A stretch of 31,255 bases of DNA from IMG/VR virus record IMGVR_UViG_3300045947_000099, positions 1 to 31,255 of that record; one strand, given 5' to 3'. Positions 7,619-27,440 of this stretch are shown here, piece by piece (within the stretch, counting starts at the first letter, position 1; the number at the start of each line of letters is the position of its first letter). The stretch is from a virus (lineage: Duplodnaviria > Caudoviricetes). The translations under genes were made by a program, and so were the position numbers. The notes below the pieces were generated by a model, which saw only the letters and a program-made list of their open reading frames with translations, was not told the DNA's origin and searched no databases.

Positions 7619-8679
7619 GCATCACCGATCTTCTCGGCTTCGTCGGGGTGCTTCAAGTAGTAGAGCACGAGCTCTACGAAGTGATCGGGGTCCTGCGCGC
7701 GAGGAGCCATCGGGAACAAGCGTGCGAGCTCGCTTCGGTGGTCATCGCTGACCACGCATGTTCCGCAAGCTGCCATCTCCAGGAATCGAGGGTTGACGTG
7801 CGCCGCAGGCAGGTTCGCATCGTTCCAGAACCCGGTTCCTTCTCTCTTCGGCATCTGCCGGCAGAGTTCGATTCCTTCTGGAACGTGCATCGCTCTCGGC
7901 CTGCCCATCACCCGCTTCTTGTAGCACTCGTTGGTGATCTCAGGAGCTCGATGCACGTTGAGCCCCACAATGCAGCTCGCGTAGTGCTTCGGGTGGTCTT
8001 GCAGGGCTACCCACTTCGGATCGTTCTTCCCCACGGTCTTGAAGAACCTGATGTCCGCGCCATCCACGAGCCGCTCAATCGGCTTGAGCCAGTCGAGTCG
8101 TGGAATCAGCGTAGCGTTACCCAAGAAGAACGCAGGCACCTGCCGCCCGGCGTAGGGTCGTCGCGCAAAGTGAACCACATCGACGCCGGGCGGCAAGTAG
8201 AAGACGTTGTTGCGGTCCTTCCTCGATCTTCGATGAACCTCAACCGTGCACGGGTCCATCGTGAAGACGTAGCCGAACCTCGGGCTATAGCGAGCCGTCT
8301 CACCTGACTCGTAGGGCTCGTCGCAGAGATAGACCGCAGTCTTGATCCCATCCTTGCGGAGACGGACCTGGAAGTCCTCGTTGCTCGCCGCGCGGCCGTG
8401 GTGGCACCACACGAGGTGAGGCTTCCACCGGGCAATGTGGTCGGCGATCTGCTTCGCCGTGCCCGGCATGCGCGTGCTCCGGTAAGGCGAGCTACCAACC
8501 GAGACGATCTGCCGCAGCACGCTGATGTCGAAGATCTGAACTTCGCAGCCGATCGCCTCAAAGCCACGCTTCCAGCCAGTCCGGTAGTCATCGCTGTAGA
8601 TCAGCCGGCTGTCATCGGCGATGGCTACGCGGAACTTCTCGGTTGGCCCTACTCCGATCTTCCTAGCTACTGGCTGCAA
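7330..8679 (-). CDS. CgeB/DUF3880-like GT-B glycosyltransferase
   Basis: WKPHLVW, YLCDEPYE, YVFTMD, FYLPPGVD, IVGLNVHR, NPRFLEMAACGTCVVSD, YYLKHPDEAEKI...HSYAHRA. Confidence 0.85.
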   Translation of the reverse strand: MQPVARKIGVGPTEKFRVAIADDSRLIYSDDYRTGWKRGFEAIGCEVQIFDISVLRQIVSVGSSPYRSTRMPGTAKQIADHIARWKPHLVWCHHGRAASNEDFQVRLRKDGIKTAVYLCDEPYESGETARYSPRFGYVFTMDPCTVEVHRRSRKDRNNVFYLPPGVDVVHFARRPYAGRQVPAFFLGNATLIPRLDWLKPIERLVDGADIRFFKTVGKNDPKWVALQDHPKHYASCIVGLNVHRAPEITNECYKKRVMGRPRAMHVPEGIELCRQMPKREGTGFWNDANLPAAHVNPRFLEMAACGTCVVSDDHRSELARLFPMAPRAQDPDHFVELVLYYLKHPDEAEKIGDACSYLISRRHSYAHRAAEVLIRVGLMGLERASQHSFLGEPAAYLSPQDLSLLLARSSSEATGRSERWSPAYGMSLTSTSGSPSESDSLDVPTPWLS

Positions 8680-9283
8680 CCTTCGGCCTCCAGAGCTCGT
8701 GGTCGTGATGTTCGATCTCCGTGTAGCTCACAGCCGGCACATGCCATGCCGAACCACCCTGGGCATGCACAGCCTTCGACCAGAAGACGATCGGATCCAC
8801 CGACCCGAATGGAGTCATCTTGCGCGCGTAGCTGGTCTGCACCACAGCGAACCGGCATCCCTCCAGCGGAGCTCGATTGTGAGGCCGCTTCACCGGGTAG
8901 TGCGTGGTGCTCTTCGTATCGGGGTAGAAATCCACGATGCCAGTGATCGGGTCACGGTCGAAGATCTGCTTGACCTTGCCGAACCACTGCCGGTCCAGCA
9001 GTCGGGTCTCCGGGCCGACGATCGCAGTGAGCTTCTCCACGCAGTCCAGAAGCCCTTCCGCCAAGATCGGGTTGAGCCCCTTGGCCACCCGCTCGTTGGT
9101 CAGCCTCCAGGCTGGCTCGAACTCCTGGAGGTAAGCCTGCAATGATCGAAGATCTTCCTCTGCGGCCCCATCCACCAGGACCAAGGCGCGGAACGGAACG
9201 TCCGTGCAGGCCCGCAGCGCATCGAGGCAGTCAGGGACGAGCTGGAGGTTCTGATGGGGCACCGGCACTAGCACGTCGAGCAA
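8663..9283 (-). CDS. GT2-like (GT-A fold) protein, apparently degenerate
   Basis: LDVLVPV...CLDALRACTDVPFRALVLVDG...KGLN follows the GT2 N-terminal pattern, but the DxD position reads VGPET. Confidence 0.6.
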   Translation of the reverse strand: MLDVLVPVPHQNLQLVPDCLDALRACTDVPFRALVLVDGAAEEDLRSLQAYLQEFEPAWRLTNERVAKGLNPILAEGLLDCVEKLTAIVGPETRLLDRQWFGKVKQIFDRDPITGIVDFYPDTKSTTHYPVKRPHNRAPLEGCRFAVVQTSYARKMTPFGSVDPIVFWSKAVHAQGGSAWHVPAVSYTEIEHHDHELWRPKVAASS

Positions 9284-17073: not shown

Positions 17074-17437
17074 CGATCGTCTTCTTCGGCTTCGCCGCGA
17101 TGACCACGGTCGGCTTCTGGACCACCGTGAGCGACAGGATCTCGCACGCGCGGAAGATCATCACCTGCTTGCCAGCGAGCGTGTCTCCCGATTCGTTGCG
17201 GATCCACTTCAAGGCATCGGTGGTGTCTTTGAAGGTCGGGATCGTGGGGATGGGCACCAAAGCTCCCTGTGGGAGCTTTTGCCCAGCCCCAATGATCTCG
17301 TAGATGCAGTAGTCGCCGCCCGCAGCTTCGAGCACACGTTTCCGTTGCCCGCGCGCCGGCACTTTCTTCTTTCCTTCGGAGGGGACGGGGATGGACTCGC
17401 CGGTCGGCGCGTCCAACGGTTCGGCTTGCTTGCTCAT
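17057..17437 (-). CDS. Hypothetical protein (126 aa)
   Basis: ATG 17437 in an ATGA overlap with the upstream gene. Confidence 0.65.
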   Translation of the reverse strand: MSKQAEPLDAPTGESIPVPSEGKKKVPARGQRKRVLEAAGGDYCIYEIIGAGQKLPQGALVPIPTIPTFKDTTDALKWIRNESGDTLAGKQVMIFRACEILSLTVVQKPTVVIAAKPKKTIDAKAT

Positions 17438-17931
17438 TCGGCCGCCCACTGTATCTCCGATTCATCGAACTTCAATGCACGAAGTTCGCTCTTCGTCCAG
17501 GTCTTCGGATGCTCCTGGCTCCATGGCGCAGAGACCGGGCAGGGCTGTTGCGGCCGTTCCGGGTAGAGCTCTGTGTCCCATTGCAGTGTGCACCTCTTGC
17601 AGAACACGTAGCGTCTCGGCCTTCCAGGCCGCATGTGATTGAAGAGATCATGTCCCTTCGTTGTGTGCGAGCGGAGAGCCACGCGCGGCTCCAGGTCCAC
17701 CTCGCAGCTCTTCCGTGGTCGCCCCCTCTTGGGATACTGCTCCAGACGTTCCTTGACCCACTGCTTGTCAGGGGTGCTCTCTGCCCACCAGTCCGCGAGA
17801 AGAGCGATCATCACCTGGAAGCCGATCGCGTTCGGCTTGTAGAGGTGCATCGCTCCGATCTGTTCCTTCAGCTTCACGATGCGTTCATGAAGTTGGCTGT
17901 TGAAGTGGACCCCTGTGGTGGAGACAGCCAT
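17434..17931 (-). CDS. Putative DNA-binding protein: RHH-like N-terminus, AT-hook-like KRGRPRK, His/Cys C-terminal domain
   Basis: MAVSTTGVHFNSQLHERI...; PKRGRPRK; GHDL...CKRC...CP; ATG 17931 preceded by GAGGTG. Confidence 0.55.
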   Translation of the reverse strand: MAVSTTGVHFNSQLHERIVKLKEQIGAMHLYKPNAIGFQVMIALLADWWAESTPDKQWVKERLEQYPKRGRPRKSCEVDLEPRVALRSHTTKGHDLFNHMRPGRPRRYVFCKRCTLQWDTELYPERPQQPCPVSAPWSQEHPKTWTKSELRALKFDESEIQWAAE

Positions 17932-17933
17932 GG

Positions 17934-18176
17934 TCACCTCGTCCACGACGGTCGGCCTTTCCCTGGGTGTAGGCCGAACAGGTCTCGGAGCTCGCTGCCA
18001 CCCGGCGGCTTCTGCAACCAGTGGTTGAACAGCACGACCAGGAACACCTCTGGCGAGCTCCATCCCTTCAGGAAGACTCCCAACTCGTCCAGCCGCTCCA
18101 TCTCGTAGGTCATCTCCTTCCACAAGCTGTCGCTGACCTGGATCGTCCGGAGACCTTCGCGTCGGGGAGGAAGCAT
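17934..18176 (-). CDS. Putative RHH-like DNA-binding protein (80 aa), first gene of the leftward arm
   Basis: LRTIQVSDSLWKEM strand-helix pattern; similar to the N-terminal half of the downstream gene. Confidence 0.55.
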   Translation of the reverse strand: MLPPRREGLRTIQVSDSLWKEMTYEMERLDELGVFLKGWSSPEVFLVVLFNHWLQKPPGGSELRDLFGLHPGKGRPSWTR

Positions 18177-18182
18177 GCCCGA

Positions 18183-18211
18183 GATCTACCACAATCGGTA
18201 GCACAGTGCAA
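18183..18211 (-). promoter_or_regulatory. Candidate sigma70-type leftward promoter giving a leaderless transcript
   Basis: Minus strand TTGCAC-N17-TAGATC with an extended TGn before the -10; the -10 ends 6 nt before ATG 18176. Confidence 0.5.
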
Positions 18212-18290
18212 TGTTTAGTCCCATTAGCTTACAGCGCCTTCGCGTGCGTGGGTGAGTGCGTGCCGCGTTTGCGCGCCCCCACTCCCCCTA

Positions 18291-18310
18291 CACACACACA
18301 CACACACACA
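18291..18310. repeat. (CA)10 dinucleotide microsatellite
   Basis: cacacacacacacacacaca read directly in the divergent intergenic region. Confidence 0.95.
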
Positions 18311-18753
18311 ATAGCACTGAATACAGACATATAGAATGATTGGACTATGGGATTGATTGCGTTGAGGGGTATCAGGTTTTCGGGGAAAAGTTGGGAAATC
18401 CTCCAGAGGTGAGAGGGTGCCTCATTCACCCCGGCAACGCCGAGGGACCCGCCCCGTCCGGGTCTCGCACCCGCCGCAACACCCGATGTCATCGACACTT
18501 GCGCGCGCGATCGCGCGGAGAGAACGGACGCACGCAGCTCGGGGAGACGAGCTCGCAGCATCGCCTTGCTTCAGCATGCCAGGGGACACGGCACGCCGTA
18601 TCCCTTCCGAACTGCCGTCCGTCACTTCCGACAACCAGCTCTCCGGCCACTCCACTCTCGCCCCTCACCTATGCGTTCTCTCTCTGATCCGATCACCATG
18701 CCACCACTAGATCCACTGCACCTATCTTGTCCCGCCCGTCACTTAGCCTGAGC

Positions 18754-18765
18754 TTGTGGTATCAT
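18754..18765 (+). promoter_or_regulatory. Candidate extended -10 rightward promoter
   Basis: TTGTGGTATCAT (TGn-TATCAT) about 65 nt upstream of ATG 18829; shares TTGTGGTA with the leftward candidate promoter. Confidence 0.45.
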
Positions 18766-18828
18766 CCTAGTCTAGTTCTGTTCGTTCTTTCACTGACACT
18801 CACCCTCAACACTCACGAGGCTTCACTT

Positions 18829-19371
18829 ATGGCACGCTCGATAGTTCTCCGCTTCGATGCAACTTGCTTCGACTGTGGCCGATCACTCTCCGCTGGCACC
18901 ACGGCCCGATGGTTCGGCCGCGGTCGCGTCTCATGCTGCGGGCAAGCTCCCGCCGCTTCACCCGCCCCGAGCCCGAGCTCGGAGCTCAGTCTCCCGCCCG
19001 GCTTGCGGAACCCGCGGCACTCGCCGGGCGGTATCCCGCTCTCGTCTCTGATCCCGCCCGGTGCACCCGCGCGCTACGTCGATGCCGCGACTGGCAAGCC
19101 AGTCGCGCCGAGCTCCAACGGCACGGCGTCCGAGCCAGCACCCGACAGCGAGCTCGGTCGCGCCCTTTCCATTGGCCTGAGCTCGCAGCAAGCCGGCCAG
19201 CTTGGCATCGCGTTCCCGATGGTTCGCCTTGTCGTGCGGCTCCACAGTGGCGCACGCTTCATCGTGCGTGCCGAGCACGTGGTGCACTTGTGCGCGTGCA
19301 TCTCCGAGAGCATGCGTGACAAGGTGCGCGACGTGATGCGTGCCGCCCCGAGCTCAGGTGCCACGGACTAA
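18829..19371 (+). CDS. Early hypothetical protein with N-terminal Cys motif
   Basis: MARSIVLRFDATCFDCGRSLSAG...W...CC, Pro-rich linker, C-terminal domain; first gene of the rightward arm. Confidence 0.6.
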   Translation: MARSIVLRFDATCFDCGRSLSAGTTARWFGRGRVSCCGQAPAASPAPSPSSELSLPPGLRNPRHSPGGIPLSSLIPPGAPARYVDAATGKPVAPSSNGTASEPAPDSELGRALSIGLSSQQAGQLGIAFPMVRLVVRLHSGARFIVRAEHVVHLCACISESMRDKVRDVMRAAPSSGATD

Positions 19372-19376
19372 CGACC

Positions 19377-19441
19377 GTGGTCCGGGCCTCGTGCACTTCG
19401 CACACAAGCCCGCTGACGATGGCCCAGGGGGCCGAAACCAC
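19377..19441 (+). ncRNA. Type III hammerhead ribozyme
   Basis: Stem III GUGGU(19377-81)/ACCAC(19437-41); cleavage triplet GUC (C19382); stem I CGGGC(19383-87)/GCCCG(19408-12) with distal GUGC/GCAC; core CUGACGA(19413-19); extra U; stem II GGCCC/GGGCC; GAAA(19434-37). Entirely intergenic. Confidence 0.9.
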
Positions 19442-19462
19442 AAAGACACGGACACTCACCCG

Positions 19463-20548
19463 ATGGCACACTTTTGGGAAAGCGGTTTCGTAGTGCGCGA
19501 GCAAGCATGGCACGGCCTCGCCACTGTTCTCGACAAGGCCCCGACGACTGCGGAAGCTCTCCGACAGTCGCAACTAGACTGGCACGTCAACTTGACGCCA
19601 GTGTTCGCGATGCCGGGCATGGCCCCCGAGCTCGCGGAAAAGAACGGCATCGCAGCCGCTCCGCTCTCCGATGCGCTCTACTGCGATGAAGCTCGCGCGA
19701 TGGTCCGCGAGATCCACCAAAAGGACGGAACCCTGCGTTCCGACGTGTTGGGCATGGTCGGCACGCGATACTGCCCGCTTCAGAACACCGACGCTTTCCG
19801 TTGGTTCGATCCCTTGTGCGCCGATGGCTCAGTGGAGCTCGAAAGCGCGGGCTCAGTGAAGGGCGGTCGCCACGTTTGGATCCTGGCACGCATCGCCACG
19901 AAGCCGCTACAGGTCGGACGCAAGCCGGAAGACGTGGCAACGCCCTACTTGCTGCTGTCGAACTCGCACGATGGCTCGCGCGCAGTGACGGTCGCGTTCA
20001 CCCCCATTCGCGTTGTGTGTTGGAACACACTGTCCGCAGCCAACCGACAAGCGGACAAGCGTGGAGCCAGCTCGCGCAAGGTGCGGCACACTTCGGCCGC
20101 AGCCAACACGCTCGCGGGTGTCCGCGAGACGATTAGCCTAGAGGCCCGGAACTTCGAAGCTAAGGCCCTACTGTGGCGCGAGCTCGCAAAGACAGATCTG
20201 GCTCGCCCCTACAGCCAAGAGCTCGCGCGGCAAGTCGCGCGTTACGCTCGCATCGTGTTCGGCTCGCCGGCCACGGTCGCGAAACACAAGGCAGAAGGCA
20301 CGCTTGCGGAGCTTCCGGAAGTGCGCGCAGAGTCGCACCTATGGGAGCTCGTGCACAAGGGGCCAGGGGCCGATTCCGCGGGTGTCTCGCCGTTCGGCCT
20401 CTACATGGCTGCGACGCACTACAGCGACCACTTCAACGGACACACTGCCGAGACGCGACTGGCTTCGACGTGGTTCGGTGCAGGTGCGCAAGTGCGCGAG
20501 CGTGCCGAAGCTGAAGCCCTTGAGCTCGCGGGCATGGGGGCGGCATGA
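19463..20548 (+). CDS. DUF932 (TIGR03299-like) phage/plasmid protein
   Basis: REQAWHGLA, LDWHV, LGMVGTRYCPLQNTDAF, ESAGSVKGGRHVW, YLLLSNSHDGS, TPIRVVCWNTL, VRHT; start re-called at ATG 19463. Confidence 0.9.
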   Translation: MAHFWESGFVVREQAWHGLATVLDKAPTTAEALRQSQLDWHVNLTPVFAMPGMAPELAEKNGIAAAPLSDALYCDEARAMVREIHQKDGTLRSDVLGMVGTRYCPLQNTDAFRWFDPLCADGSVELESAGSVKGGRHVWILARIATKPLQVGRKPEDVATPYLLLSNSHDGSRAVTVAFTPIRVVCWNTLSAANRQADKRGASSRKVRHTSAAANTLAGVRETISLEARNFEAKALLWRELAKTDLARPYSQELARQVARYARIVFGSPATVAKHKAEGTLAELPEVRAESHLWELVHKGPGADSAGVSPFGLYMAATHYSDHFNGHTAETRLASTWFGAGAQVRERAEAEALELAGMGAA

Positions 20549-20883
20549 GCCGCCCCGACACGCTTGCGGCTCGCGTGCGTGAGATCATCGATCACCTAGA
20601 CGCTCGCATCGAAGCCGCTACCTTCCAGGAAGGTGCGGACCGGCAACACTGCGTTGCCGTGGTCGGGTGTTACCACACTCTGGCCGGACGGTTGGAGCGT
20701 GACCTAGACGGCACGCTTTCCTTGTTCAACGAAGTTCGCGAGCTCGCGCGCCGCGTGCGTCAGCTCAAGCGCATCGTGCGTGACCACGCGATGATGGTAG
20801 AACGCGCGGGTGCACTCCTGCGGGCAGCCCGCAGGAGCGAAGTCGCTCGCGTCATCAAACAAGCGCAAAGGGGGACCCGGTGA
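20545..20883 (+). CDS. Hypothetical protein (112 aa)
   Basis: ATGA overlap with DUF932; helical. Confidence 0.6.
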   Translation: MSRPDTLAARVREIIDHLDARIEAATFQEGADRQHCVAVVGCYHTLAGRLERDLDGTLSLFNEVRELARRVRQLKRIVRDHAMMVERAGALLRAARRSEVARVIKQAQRGTR

Positions 20884-21140
20884 GCCGGGTTCTCCCCTTG
20901 CCGTTCCACGTGTTCGACCAGCTCAACACGTTGCGAGCTCGCACGAGCTCCGCGGAGAACGCGCTACACGTGGTCGCGCTCTTCGATGATGGGGCGCACG
21001 TGCGAGCCTATCCGCAGGGCATGCCCGCGGTAACGCTCTGGACGAAGGGAGCCGAGCTCCCGTGTTCGCTCGCACAAGCGTGCGCGACTGTGGTCCGCCG
21101 GCTCGCGGAGCACAAGCTCAGGGAGAAGCGCGGCGGGTGA
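20880..21140 (+). CDS. Hypothetical protein (86 aa)
   Basis: GTGA overlap with the upstream gene. Confidence 0.55.
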   Translation: MSRVLPLPFHVFDQLNTLRARTSSAENALHVVALFDDGAHVRAYPQGMPAVTLWTKGAELPCSLAQACATVVRRLAEHKLREKRGG

Positions 21141-21281
21141 CCCCCGCCGGCTGTCCCGCCGCCGGGGACGCCCATGTTCCACGGGGACCGCGAGAGATCG
21201 CGTCGCGAGAGATCCGCTTCCCTTTCGCGGAAACGGTGCTACCCTGCATGCGCACGTATCCGCGTGTCATAGGTGTGCTGC

Positions 21282-21320
21282 GCCCCGGCTTGTCGTGAGT
21301 GTCAAGCCGGGGCTTTTTCT
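21282..21320 (+). terminator. Intrinsic terminator
   Basis: 11-bp stem GCCCCGGCTTG/CAAGCCGGGGC, 10-nt loop TCGTGAGTGT, followed by TTTTTCTT. Confidence 0.85.
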
Positions 21321-21331
21321 TGTCACGAGGC

Positions 21332-21360
21332 TTGCCGGTCTTCGATCATCTCGGTATGCT
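21332..21360 (+). promoter_or_regulatory. Candidate sigma70-type promoter for the replication operon
   Basis: TTGCCG-N17-TATGCT immediately after the terminator and about 30 nt before ATG 21392. Confidence 0.65.
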
Positions 21361-21391
21361 GATCGATGTTCAAGCAGGGGACACACTCACC

Positions 21392-21562
21392 ATGAACGCC
21401 GTTGCCCGTTACTGCGATCTCTTCAAGAAGAGCGGGAAGACTCCAGCCGCCTTCGCGCGCTTTGCACTGGCTCACTACTACGAGCTGTGCCACGACGTGC
21501 TCAACCTCATCGGCTGCTGGCCCAGTTCCGAGCCCGAGCTCGCTGCACTGCAACGCGCATGA
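21392..21562 (+). CDS. Hypothetical protein (56 aa)
   Basis: ATG downstream of the candidate promoter; stop coupled (ATGA) to the next gene. Confidence 0.5.
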   Translation: MNAVARYCDLFKKSGKTPAAFARFALAHYYELCHDVLNLIGCWPSSEPELAALQRA

Positions 21563-21867
21563 ATGCTCTCCCCGATCTGTCGCGCACTGAGGCTGCGATT
21601 GCAGCCTACGACGCGCATGACATCACCTACATGGCGGCCTTGGCTGCCGACACTGGCCGACGTTCCTGCACGATCCTCGATGAATGGTATAAGAAGAGCG
21701 ATCTTCTCGCGTTCAAGGTTGGAGAAGCCTACGGCCTGGACACGAAGGATCGCAACAACCCGAAGGACTGTGCTGATCTCATCAGGCCAGGGCCAGCAAC
21801 ACCAACCGATGGTAGTGAGCTGAGCTTTGTGCGTCGCATGGTTGCACTGTGGAAGGCACAGCGATGA
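21559..21867 (+). CDS. Hypothetical protein (102 aa)
   Basis: ATGA overlaps at both ends. Confidence 0.6.
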   Translation: MNALPDLSRTEAAIAAYDAHDITYMAALAADTGRRSCTILDEWYKKSDLLAFKVGEAYGLDTKDRNNPKDCADLIRPGPATPTDGSELSFVRRMVALWKAQR

Positions 21868-22043
21868 AGCGCATTCCGGCTTGGGTCAAAGCTGCCGAGT
21901 GGATCTTCCAGCAGTGGAATCTCCAGGAGACTGAGCGCAGGCAGAACGGGCAGGGTGCCGTGGAAATAGGAGTGGAAGCCTTGCGCGATCTTCGCAAAGC
22001 CTACCTGAGCTGGTATAGGAAGTGGCTGAAGGATAATCGATGA
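21864..22043 (+). CDS. Hypothetical protein (59 aa)
   Basis: ATGA overlaps at both ends. Confidence 0.55.
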   Translation: MKRIPAWVKAAEWIFQQWNLQETERRQNGQGAVEIGVEALRDLRKAYLSWYRKWLKDNR

Positions 22044-23863
22044 TCCTCGAAGTTGACTACGACCCCGACTCAACGCGCTTTCTGATCCGCGTCCCTGGCA
22101 AGATGATCGTTCCTGCGATCAACGAATGGCCAGGGTGGAAGCGCAATCCTAGCGGCACCTACTACGCTCCAGCCTGGGCTAGCTGCGTCCTGCTGCCAAG
22201 CAAGGAACGGGCAACAGAGGTGCGATGGACTGCGAGCGCGAGTCGCAAGCGCGATCTCCTCTTGGCCAACATGGGCTTCGCGAGAGACTCGCTGACGAAG
22301 GGAGCTCAATCGATGAAGCCAACCGGCTGCCCTACGGAGAGGAAGCCACGCCCCTACCAGCTAGCCGGCGTCGAAGCGATGCGAGCGATGGACTGGCGCG
22401 TGCTGCTCGAAGATGAGATGGGCCTTGGGAAGACCAGCACTGCGCTGTGGGCCTTGCACGACAGCCACGTGGCTCGTTGCATCGTGCTTTGTCCTGTCAG
22501 TGCGAAATACAACTGGGAGAACGAGTTCAAGGAGACGCTTGGAGCTCAGTGGCCCAGTGTGTTCGTGATCGACGGCACGCCGAAGCAACGCGCCAACCAG
22601 TTCGCTGAAGTGAAGGAAGCGTGCAACGACAGCAAGGACCCTGCACACGTTGCGATCATCATCAACTACGACCTGCTGCGTTACTTGACCACAGAGCAGT
22701 GGATCTACCTGAAGAACTTCGTGGGAGCAGGGATGCTGCTGTGTGACGAGTCCCACTACGTGAAGGATCGCAACGCAGAACGAACCAAGCTCACTCTGGA
22801 GCTCAGTTGGGCCGCTCGCTTCGCCACGTGCATCTCAGGGACGCCGATCCGCAACATGGCTGACGACCTGTTCACTCAGGTCGAGATCATCAGACCGGGC
22901 ACGTGGAGCTCCTACTGGGATTTCGCCAAGCGGCACCTGACGATCCAGCTCGTGAAGTTCGGCAAGCGTGAGGTGAGGAAGATCGTGGGGTCGAAGAACA
23001 TCGATCAACTCAACGCGATCGTCAACACCTTCGCGATCAAGCGACTCAAGAAGGATGTCGGGGATCTCCCTCCGAAGGTCCACACTTACCCCGAGCTGGA
23101 GCTCGAAGGCGACATGCTCTCCTTCTACAAGAAGATGAAGGAGTTCGCGAAGATCGAGCTCGCGAAGCTCATCGATGATGCTGCATGGCCCACGCACGCA
23201 GCGCAGATTACCATTTGGGACCCGCGAGCCAAGACCGCAGTGGAGGCTGCGCTGCGCTGCGAGCAGATCGCGCAGGGCTTTGTCGGTGGGATCCCTGAGC
23301 CCTTGATGGAGAAGCTCGGCGACTCGCTGAAGCTAGCGGAGAAGATCAAGGGGCGGCCCAATGAGCTCATGCTGCCTAGCTCCCCGAAGATCGTGTGGCT
23401 CATCGAGACCATCGCTCAGGTGCTCAAGCAAGGCGGGGCTCCGATCATCCTGTCCCGCTTCAACGCGCCGATGTTCTGGCTGGAGATGAAGTTCGCAAGC
23501 CTGGGCGTGAAGAGCCGCGTGCTGCACGGCGACCTGAGCGCAGCAGAGAAGCACCTGTTTGTCACCGACTTCCAAGGCGGCCAGTTCGACGTGCTTCTGT
23601 GTCAGGTGAAGATCGCGGAGAGCTGGAACGCGACGCGATGCCAGGATGTGATCTTCCTCACGCGCGACTGGTCCCCTGCGATGAACTCGCAAGGCGAAGA
23701 TCGAGCGCATCGCTTCGGGCAGAAGGGCACGGTCAACGTGCAGATCCCGATCGTGCGCAACACGATCGAGCGACTGATTCACAAGAAGCTGTTGGCGAAG
23801 GGCGTGGACGCAGAGCAGGCTCTTCGAACAGTGACGATCGCTGAACTCATGGAGAACCTCTAA
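22040..23863 (+). CDS. SNF2-family (SF2) helicase/ATPase
   Basis: RPYQ, LEDEMGLGKT, VLCPVS, LCDESH, SGTPIRN, DWSP...QGEDRAHRFGQ. Confidence 0.92.
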   Translation: MILEVDYDPDSTRFLIRVPGKMIVPAINEWPGWKRNPSGTYYAPAWASCVLLPSKERATEVRWTASASRKRDLLLANMGFARDSLTKGAQSMKPTGCPTERKPRPYQLAGVEAMRAMDWRVLLEDEMGLGKTSTALWALHDSHVARCIVLCPVSAKYNWENEFKETLGAQWPSVFVIDGTPKQRANQFAEVKEACNDSKDPAHVAIIINYDLLRYLTTEQWIYLKNFVGAGMLLCDESHYVKDRNAERTKLTLELSWAARFATCISGTPIRNMADDLFTQVEIIRPGTWSSYWDFAKRHLTIQLVKFGKREVRKIVGSKNIDQLNAIVNTFAIKRLKKDVGDLPPKVHTYPELELEGDMLSFYKKMKEFAKIELAKLIDDAAWPTHAAQITIWDPRAKTAVEAALRCEQIAQGFVGGIPEPLMEKLGDSLKLAEKIKGRPNELMLPSSPKIVWLIETIAQVLKQGGAPIILSRFNAPMFWLEMKFASLGVKSRVLHGDLSAAEKHLFVTDFQGGQFDVLLCQVKIAESWNATRCQDVIFLTRDWSPAMNSQGEDRAHRFGQKGTVNVQIPIVRNTIERLIHKKLLAKGVDAEQALRTVTIAELMENL

Positions 23864-27380: not shown

Positions 27381-27402
27381 CGAAGAGCGATCATCACAAA
27401 AC

Positions 27403-27440
27403 AACGGGCTGCGCCACTGGCTAGGTGGGCAGCCCGTTTG
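27403..27440 (+). terminator. Strong hairpin, possible weak terminator or attenuator between SSB-like and primase-helicase genes
   Basis: AACGGGCTGC/GCAGCCCGTT plus CCAC/GTGG; only a short T-run follows. Confidence 0.45.

Follow-up and report, generated by a model that had tools for sequence, protein, structure and literature searches.

The window analysed here, positions 1 to 31,255 of the IMG/VR record IMGVR_UViG_3300045947_000099, is a fragment of the genome of a tailed phage (approximately 48 kilobases, kb). Its plus-strand unit at 21252-21321 is a candidate trans-acting antisense small RNA, and sequence comparison makes it rather probable that this RNA would block the translation of early genes. 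The genes concerned belong to a plus-strand module (approximately 18400-21320) which begins where the two gene blocks of the window switch strand, and which is presumed to be early. The predicted main target is the start region of the gene at 18829, the first of the module. The unit comprises the following elements:

21237..21245, plus strand: putative promoter of the candidate small RNA, resembling an extended -10 box (TGn-TACCCT) and without a good -35 box in the window lineage
21252..21321, plus strand: candidate small RNA of approximately 70 nucleotides (nt), with a weak 5' hairpin and a terminator hairpin; 5' end predicted
21262..21275, plus strand: 5' block that complements 18824-18837, where gene 18829 has its start codon
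21282..21321, plus strand: intrinsic-terminator-like hairpin, with a stem of 11 base pairs (bp) and a T tail
21293..21302, plus strand: loop of the terminator, perfectly complementary to 18809-18818, with 8 of its nt matching three further leader copies

Its predicted targets, and the genes that they precede, are:

18796..18837, plus strand: leader and start of gene 18829, predicted main target, identical in the relative L002
18829..19371, plus strand: first early gene, 180 amino acids, N-terminal CxxC...CC motif
19452..19459, plus strand: leader-motif copy in front of the DUF932 gene (ATG 19463), a secondary target by prediction
19463..20548, plus strand: DUF932 gene (PF06067, E-value 1.2e-39)
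21383..21390, plus strand: leader-motif copy in front of ATG 21392, a secondary target by prediction, belonging to another transcript and kept in L002 before a different gene

In the hairpin that closes the unit, a perfect 11-bp stem (21282-21292/21303-21313) encloses a loop of 10 nt and is followed by a T tail; the hairpin shows the G+C-rich stem, T run and conserved pairs of an intrinsic terminator. It was missed by a simple terminator scan because the loop limit of that scan is 8. The window has a complete twin (record L001/G001, 47.9 kb, 99.98% identical over 16.7 kb), in which this hairpin is one of two perfect stems of at least 8 bp followed by a T tail. The whole unit folds with -32.8 kcal/mol (z-score -4.25), a stability equalled by none of 200 shuffles. 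Moreover, sites of the form TGnTAnnnT occur only seven times on both strands of the window, the one at 21237-21245 among them. A TTGACA on the minus strand of the hairpin was considered as a promoter and discarded, having no -10 box at the right distance. Rfam gave no relevant match in 17500-22500 at an E-value of 5 or below, and none at the gathering score in seven related loci.

The initial annotation had described a leader motif upstream of several start codons, together with a terminator loop complementary to it, as the signature of a trans-acting RNA. All nine sequence stretches that it quoted and its three ATGs lie where it had placed them, and the loop is indeed the exact complement of 18809-18818. 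The core of the motif, ACACTCAC, occurs six times on both strands against 1.14 expected, a number reached by one of 100 shuffles; the 7-mer CACTCAC alone is not enriched (8 copies versus 6.5 expected). Five of the six copies fall within 18796-21390, and the four plus-strand copies all start 9-33 nt before an ATG. The leader of gene 18829 holds two of them, at 18796 and 18809, followed by GAGG (18817-18820) and the ATG at 18829. The copies keep a short distance to start codons and not to promoters, and no promoter-like site was found near the copy at 19452.

Some details of that description did not hold. The absence of a strong Shine-Dalgarno (SD) sequence had been overstated, since ATG 18829 is preceded at 8 nt by GAGG and ATG 21392 at 10 nt by AGGGGA; weak signals of this kind are typical of most genes in this genome. 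The minus-strand copy at 18250 is absent from L002 and looks incidental, as does the second TCACGAGGCTT (21323), which is lost in L002 and overlaps the -35 box of the downstream promoter. GAGCTC, considered as a module-specific motif, was ruled out, being common across the whole window.

Gene 18829 would pair with the unit in two colinear blocks, the loop with positions -20 to -11 and the 5' block with positions -5 to +9, the latter through 14 pairs (12 Watson-Crick and two G-U). When pairing was scored, a check suggested in the initial annotation as RNA-RNA interaction prediction, this 14-bp block ranked second among the 1144 sites on both strands of the window; the loop ranked tenth. Among the 1216 ATG-anchored windows of the twin genome, a perfect match of at least 10 nt occurs only at the start of gene 18829. 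The leaders at 19452 and 21383 are complementary to the loop over 8 nt. The leader of gene 18829 is predicted to be largely open, and the pairing would cover the AUG and part of the SD-like GAGG. CACCTAT (18667/18718) was also considered as the site read by the 5' block and was rejected, the pairing being longer at the start of gene 18829.

Close relatives provide a further line of evidence. L002, approximately 82% identical to the window over the module, has three of the 11 stem pairs of the terminator changed on both sides and none broken, with all ten loop positions identical. It also keeps the four leader copies, one of them now before a different gene, and although its 5' arm has diverged, it could still form an 11-bp helix with positions +3 to +13 of the same first gene. 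The promoter box has its counterpart TGCTACACT at the same place in L002. A third strain, represented by one contig of the RNA run X2, carries GCTACACT there; it shows four differences in the loop end and 3' stem arm plus one inserted base, and retains the 7-nt loop core, the -10 box and the leader. Loop-pattern searches yielded only the twin and L002 as clade members among the loci covered, which included two of the 11 in one listing; L007 was discarded as a chance loop match without a hairpin. Thirteen RNA runs are listed and six (X1-X6) were compared: their contigs give thin coverage in 28-30 of the 30 bins into which 20 kb were divided, with start, end and strand unreadable and DNA carry-over possible.

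The comparison extended to distant relatives (L020, L021, L181, L190, L192 and L024), whose helicases are 40-55% identical. In L020/L021, L181, L192 and L190 a promoter-to-terminator unit of different sequence lies between the module and the helicase gene. A promoter-like box and a terminator-like hairpin are predicted in all seven units examined, 63-111 nt long, and at the equivalent place the boxes of L020, L021 and L181 are near consensus (TTGCAW-17-TACWST). The L181 unit lies behind a separate upstream terminator-like hairpin, and L020 and L021 carry an HNH-like gene inserted on the opposite strand upstream of the unit. Each unit was scored by the longest perfect match between its loop plus the 60 nt upstream of its stem and the start region of its own first gene; L197 (leader side only) and L101 (DUF932 only) were excluded. 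The matches were 10 nt in the window, L002, L020 and L181, 11 in L021, 9 in L192 and 8 in L190. Among 93 control hairpins from eight genomes treated by the same rule, 83 scored 6 or less, six scored 7, three scored 8 and one scored 9. At least 10 nt was therefore reached by five of the seven focal units, L002 included, and by none of the controls.

The position of this site within each genome points in the same direction. The own first-gene site ranked 2 of 1144 in the window, and 1/334, 2/488, 24/605, 1/156, 2/120 and 33/584 in the other six genomes (both strands), and the target of the own lineage had the best energy in four of five lineages. Other leaders also match: DUF932 (9 nt) and helicase (9) in L181, helicase (9) in L192, DUF932 (9) in L021 and primase (10) in L190, each reached by at most 1.4% of background windows. 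When the units were shuffled 3000 times, the observed sum was reached once for L021, six times each for L181 and L192, and 33 times for L020. L021 has the same leader motif as the window but would read it with an 11-nt 5' block that spans the AUG; this accounts for the single strong match found across lineages. In L020, L021, L181 and L190 the matches often span the AUG itself.

Two observations on these units stand on their own. L020 has two terminators, at 7750-7790 and 8338-8375, with the same 8-nt loop and different stems. In L190 (3288-3345, plus strand), the primase start lies behind a hairpin complementary over 16 bp to the 3' stem arm of the candidate RNA, and the primase AUG matches the loop of the unit over 10 nt; the primase GTG of the window (around 27400-27440) is also inside a strong hairpin, for which no match to the window's RNA was noted.

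Several results weigh against the small-RNA reading. L024, the most distant relative examined, has only 7 nt at the equivalent hairpin. The first-gene energy of L190 is -1.2 and not the best in its row, and its 8-nt match may in part be a palindrome repeated in that region. The L020 loop matches leaders poorly; the L192 loop has no match, only its 5' arm pairing. The second hairpins of L020 (same loop) and L181 score 5, so that those lineages had two chances. Comparing helix extension by G-U pairs with extension by A-C gave a mixed result: G-U extension helped at the first gene in three of seven genomes, and A-C extension gave longer helices at several other leaders. Units and leaders were initially chosen by eye, many control hairpins are not true terminators, and the promoter of the window lacks a -35 box. 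The stem covariation involves two sequences only (the window and L002), and 56 of 500 shuffles reach the same result. In the unit shuffles, the observed sum was reached 182, 304 and 328 times of 3000 for L190, the window and L002, respectively, which is not significant for the window itself. Dinucleotide shuffling has little power with a loop of only 10 nt, probably because it allows few distinct arrangements.

Since neither the window and L002 nor L020 and L021 are independent, the balance is four strong lineages, one intermediate (L190) and one negative (L024) out of six. The co-variation of loop and leaders which the initial annotation had put forward as a check is seen in part: in L002 the stem changes around a fixed loop, and the complementarity is lineage-specific in those four lineages, intermediate in L190 and negative in L024. 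Its proposal of an approximately 70-nt RNA running from TGCTACCCT to the terminator and pairing with early starts gains comparative support, with the amendment that the loop is only one of two pairing blocks. The seed had been placed in the terminator loop; three lineages have their longer match upstream of the terminator. As for the early-gene targets, the first early gene stands as the main predicted one, and two of the cited motif copies are not conserved.

The mechanism would then proceed as follows. The unit would be transcribed on its own from the extended -10 box, the exposed terminator loop would make the first contact with the leader of gene 18829, and the 5' block would extend the pairing over the AUG. 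The effect would be repression: gene 18829 would no longer be translated, with a weaker effect on the DUF932 gene and the gene at 21392, and the likely purpose would be to shut down the early module once the stable RNA has accumulated. A bolder version is speculative and rather unlikely: one small RNA would serve as a master off-switch and as a lineage-specific superinfection lock against close kin, a hammerhead-like cut would split its targets into separate messages, and in a clade of approximately 47 kb genomes without detectable integrase the RNA would be rewritten in each lineage together with its targets, the pairing moving between loop and 5' arm.

The same pairing might instead involve the 3' end of the early message, either by a fold-back in cis or through a processed 3' fragment without a promoter of its own. 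This is unlikely, even though the hairpin is the natural end of the operon that starts at 18757, its best target is the first gene of that operon, the internal promoter of the window has no -35 box and the RNA-run contigs do not separate a tail from a discrete RNA. The 21392 target lies downstream, on another promoter unit; internal promoters are near consensus in L020, L021 and L181; an opposite-strand insertion (L020, L021) or an upstream hairpin (L181) precedes the unit; and the hammerhead-like element, if active, would cut gene 18829 from the tail. It is still less likely that ACACTCAC is a DNA operator for a phage repressor, for example the product of the leftward gene 17937-18176, with the loop copy as an inverted operator. 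An operator and its protein drifting together would mimic covariation, the early promoter is closely followed by two copies, the mixed G-U test would fit, and the 80-amino-acid leftward protein has weak ribbon-helix-helix-like neighbours (0.87-0.89, a lead only); this protein, however, has no Pfam family. Moreover, the four leader copies share one orientation, opposite to that of the loop copy, the matches in L020, L021, L181 and L190 often include the AUG, and the 14-bp block needs G-U pairs. The initial annotation had also offered protein operators as its alternative, which would place sites at promoters in either orientation; the copies follow start codons, that at 19452 having no promoter nearby.

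About equally improbable is that the motif is a C/A-rich unstructured spacer of strongly expressed genes which the loop matches by chance. The module is rich in ACAC, L024 is negative and L021 has the same first-gene leader motif despite a different loop, but the L021 unit pairs with that leader through its 11-nt 5' block. Chance also sits poorly with the gap between focal units and controls at 10 nt, with gene 18829 being alone among the 1216 ATG windows, and with a loop that stays fixed while its stem changes. The least probable reading is that the RNA pairs but activates or stabilises its targets, or that its main target is a host RNA resembling the leaders. The L190 unit, complementary to one arm of the hairpin before the primase start, could open that hairpin, and the scan covered phage sites only. 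Against activation, the window leader is predicted to be largely open already, and the AUG would be paired together with part of the GAGG; pairing over the AUG and SD usually blocks ribosome loading.

Several known RNA regulators resemble the candidate in part. OxyS of E. coli binds fhlA with its terminator loop at the site of translation initiation and with a second loop deeper in the mRNA (PMC11979758). The candidate has the same two-loop layout but is phage-encoded, aimed at the early genes of its own phage, without an Rfam match and variable in sequence by lineage. According to PMC12197685, the c4 RNA of P1/P7 is encoded away from the site on which it acts and prevents translation through complementarity carried in its loops, in the region of the ribosome binding site; its sequence differences underlie P1/P7 heteroimmunity. 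The candidate is likewise a phage RNA with loop-borne complementarity encoded apart from its target, but it differs from c4, which is cut out of a longer precursor, in ending in its own terminator, and its target gene 18829 is no antirepressor by Pfam or PHROG. Furthermore, c4 belongs to temperate phages, whereas no integrase or resolvase (PF00589, PF00239) was found in four clade records at least 90% complete. The P4 CI RNA is a short phage RNA pairing with short complementary elements in the early leader; it acts by ending transcription early and matures out of the very transcript under its control, whereas no terminator was found within the target leader of the candidate. The kinship to c4 or CI RNAs evoked in the initial annotation does not extend to family membership, as judged by Rfam.

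GcvB regulates multiple targets by pairing with C/A-rich elements just upstream of start sites, which include ACA-containing translation enhancers (PMC3879156, in the part consulted). The loop of the window is similarly G/U-rich and its leaders C/A-rich; unlike GcvB, a conserved chromosomal RNA with a conserved seed, the candidate changes its pairing sequence between lineages, and ACACTCAC is only a putative enhancer. Lambda OOP and P22 sar are described in the consulted part of PMC12197685 as small phage RNAs that lower phage gene expression by pairing; they lie on the strand opposite their targets, whereas the candidate lies on the same strand, 2.4 kb downstream of its target and with short partial complementarity. 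That antisense RNAs can change as their targets change is stated in the accessible part of PMC5737381. A literature search that covered few subscription papers gave nothing on this clade or RNA; the 224 supplement motifs of PMC5737381 lie outside this comparison and may hold a related one.

The remaining features of the module and its surroundings include:

18757..18765, plus strand: extended -10-like promoter of the early operon, TG-n-TATCAT kept in L002
19377..19441, plus strand: hammerhead-like RNA whose stem III is open, read from the sequence downstream of gene 18829 and ahead of the DUF932 gene
21189..21213, plus strand: two CGCGAGAGAT copies upstream of the small-RNA promoter, kept in L002
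21332..21360, plus strand: promoter-like site TTGCCG-17-TATGCT, directly 3' of the terminator (in L002, TTGACG-17-TAAGAT)

From the 18757 promoter, the operon order is gene 18829, the hammerhead-like element, the DUF932 gene and two small genes; the site at 21332-21360 is predicted to drive the genes from 21392. The protein of gene 18829 has no Pfam or PHROG family. It has 60 relatives at an E-value of at most 0.001, with conserved cysteines, none of them with a solved structure, and none of its Atlas scores exceeds 0.87. The hammerhead-like element has the CUGANGA and GAAA core and the stems, with a predicted cut after 19382, and its stems I and III are changed on both sides in L002, L020 and L021. 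An extra U lies between the core and stem II in the window, L002 and L020, L021 having the plain core; this variant is not named in the hammerhead section of PMC3088659, which, as far as consulted, reports hammerheads flanking ardA in a phage-like region. The hammerhead-like fold is not the minimum-energy fold of 19377-19441, Rfam did not match the element in the window or related loci, and a hammerhead descriptor search matched L021 only.

The minus strand of the window encodes the portal, the terminase large subunit and a head protein, and the plus strand an SNF2 helicase, a primase-like protein and a resolvase. Pieces near-identical to the window occur in soil libraries, and no close relative of the phage was found among GenBank phages or 300 genomes of the class of G003. 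Above 35% identity, the 78 helicase loci include only the twin and L024, and the metagenome scan gave only distant DUF932 genes among the matches listed. Phage Hfq was absent from five records. GATC is scarcer in the module (4.8/kb) than in the rest of the window (12.3/kb), and the same holds in all seven genomes checked, which would fit module DNA entering the cell first and avoiding restriction.

A motif related to CGCGAGAGAT occurs at the equivalent place in L020, L021, L181 and L192, and the pair may be a putative protein-binding site. In most relatives the module is bracketed by inverted conserved motifs, of CTCGCA type on the left (18460-18469) and CGCGAG type on the right (21189-21213), possibly protein-binding or genome-end signals. 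At the junction of the two gene blocks, 18276-18311 holds an (AC)n repeat and a C run; similar tracts occur in L002, L020, L021 and L181. In the window, Rfam gives only chance matches to microRNA families here, and the tract possibly lies near the physical genome end. The leftward (minus-strand) genes 17937-18176 and 17437-17931 have N-termini that look ribbon-helix-helix-like by eye. A promoter-like site runs from 18211, and gene 17937-18176 starts 6 nt after its -10-like box and is therefore probably leaderless. Elsewhere, L020 carries just before the helicase (8650-9100) two tandem small open reading frames made almost entirely of 6-nt repeats, of Arg-Ser or Gly-Pro type depending on the frame, and the first-gene leader of L197 has a tandem 19-nt pyrimidine-rich repeat.

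According to the part of PMC12197685 consulted, most phage small RNAs whose targets are known belong to temperate phages that infect model bacteria. The small-RNA reading, as a candidate, is well motivated by natural sequence swaps across lineages, which come with named targets and with the expectation that an RNA acts on the leader of its own lineage and on no other. If the reading is true, the RNA evolves jointly with its target until no conserved sequence is left, so that such RNAs would escape family searches, and early genes would be shut off at the RNA level in phages without a detectable integrase.

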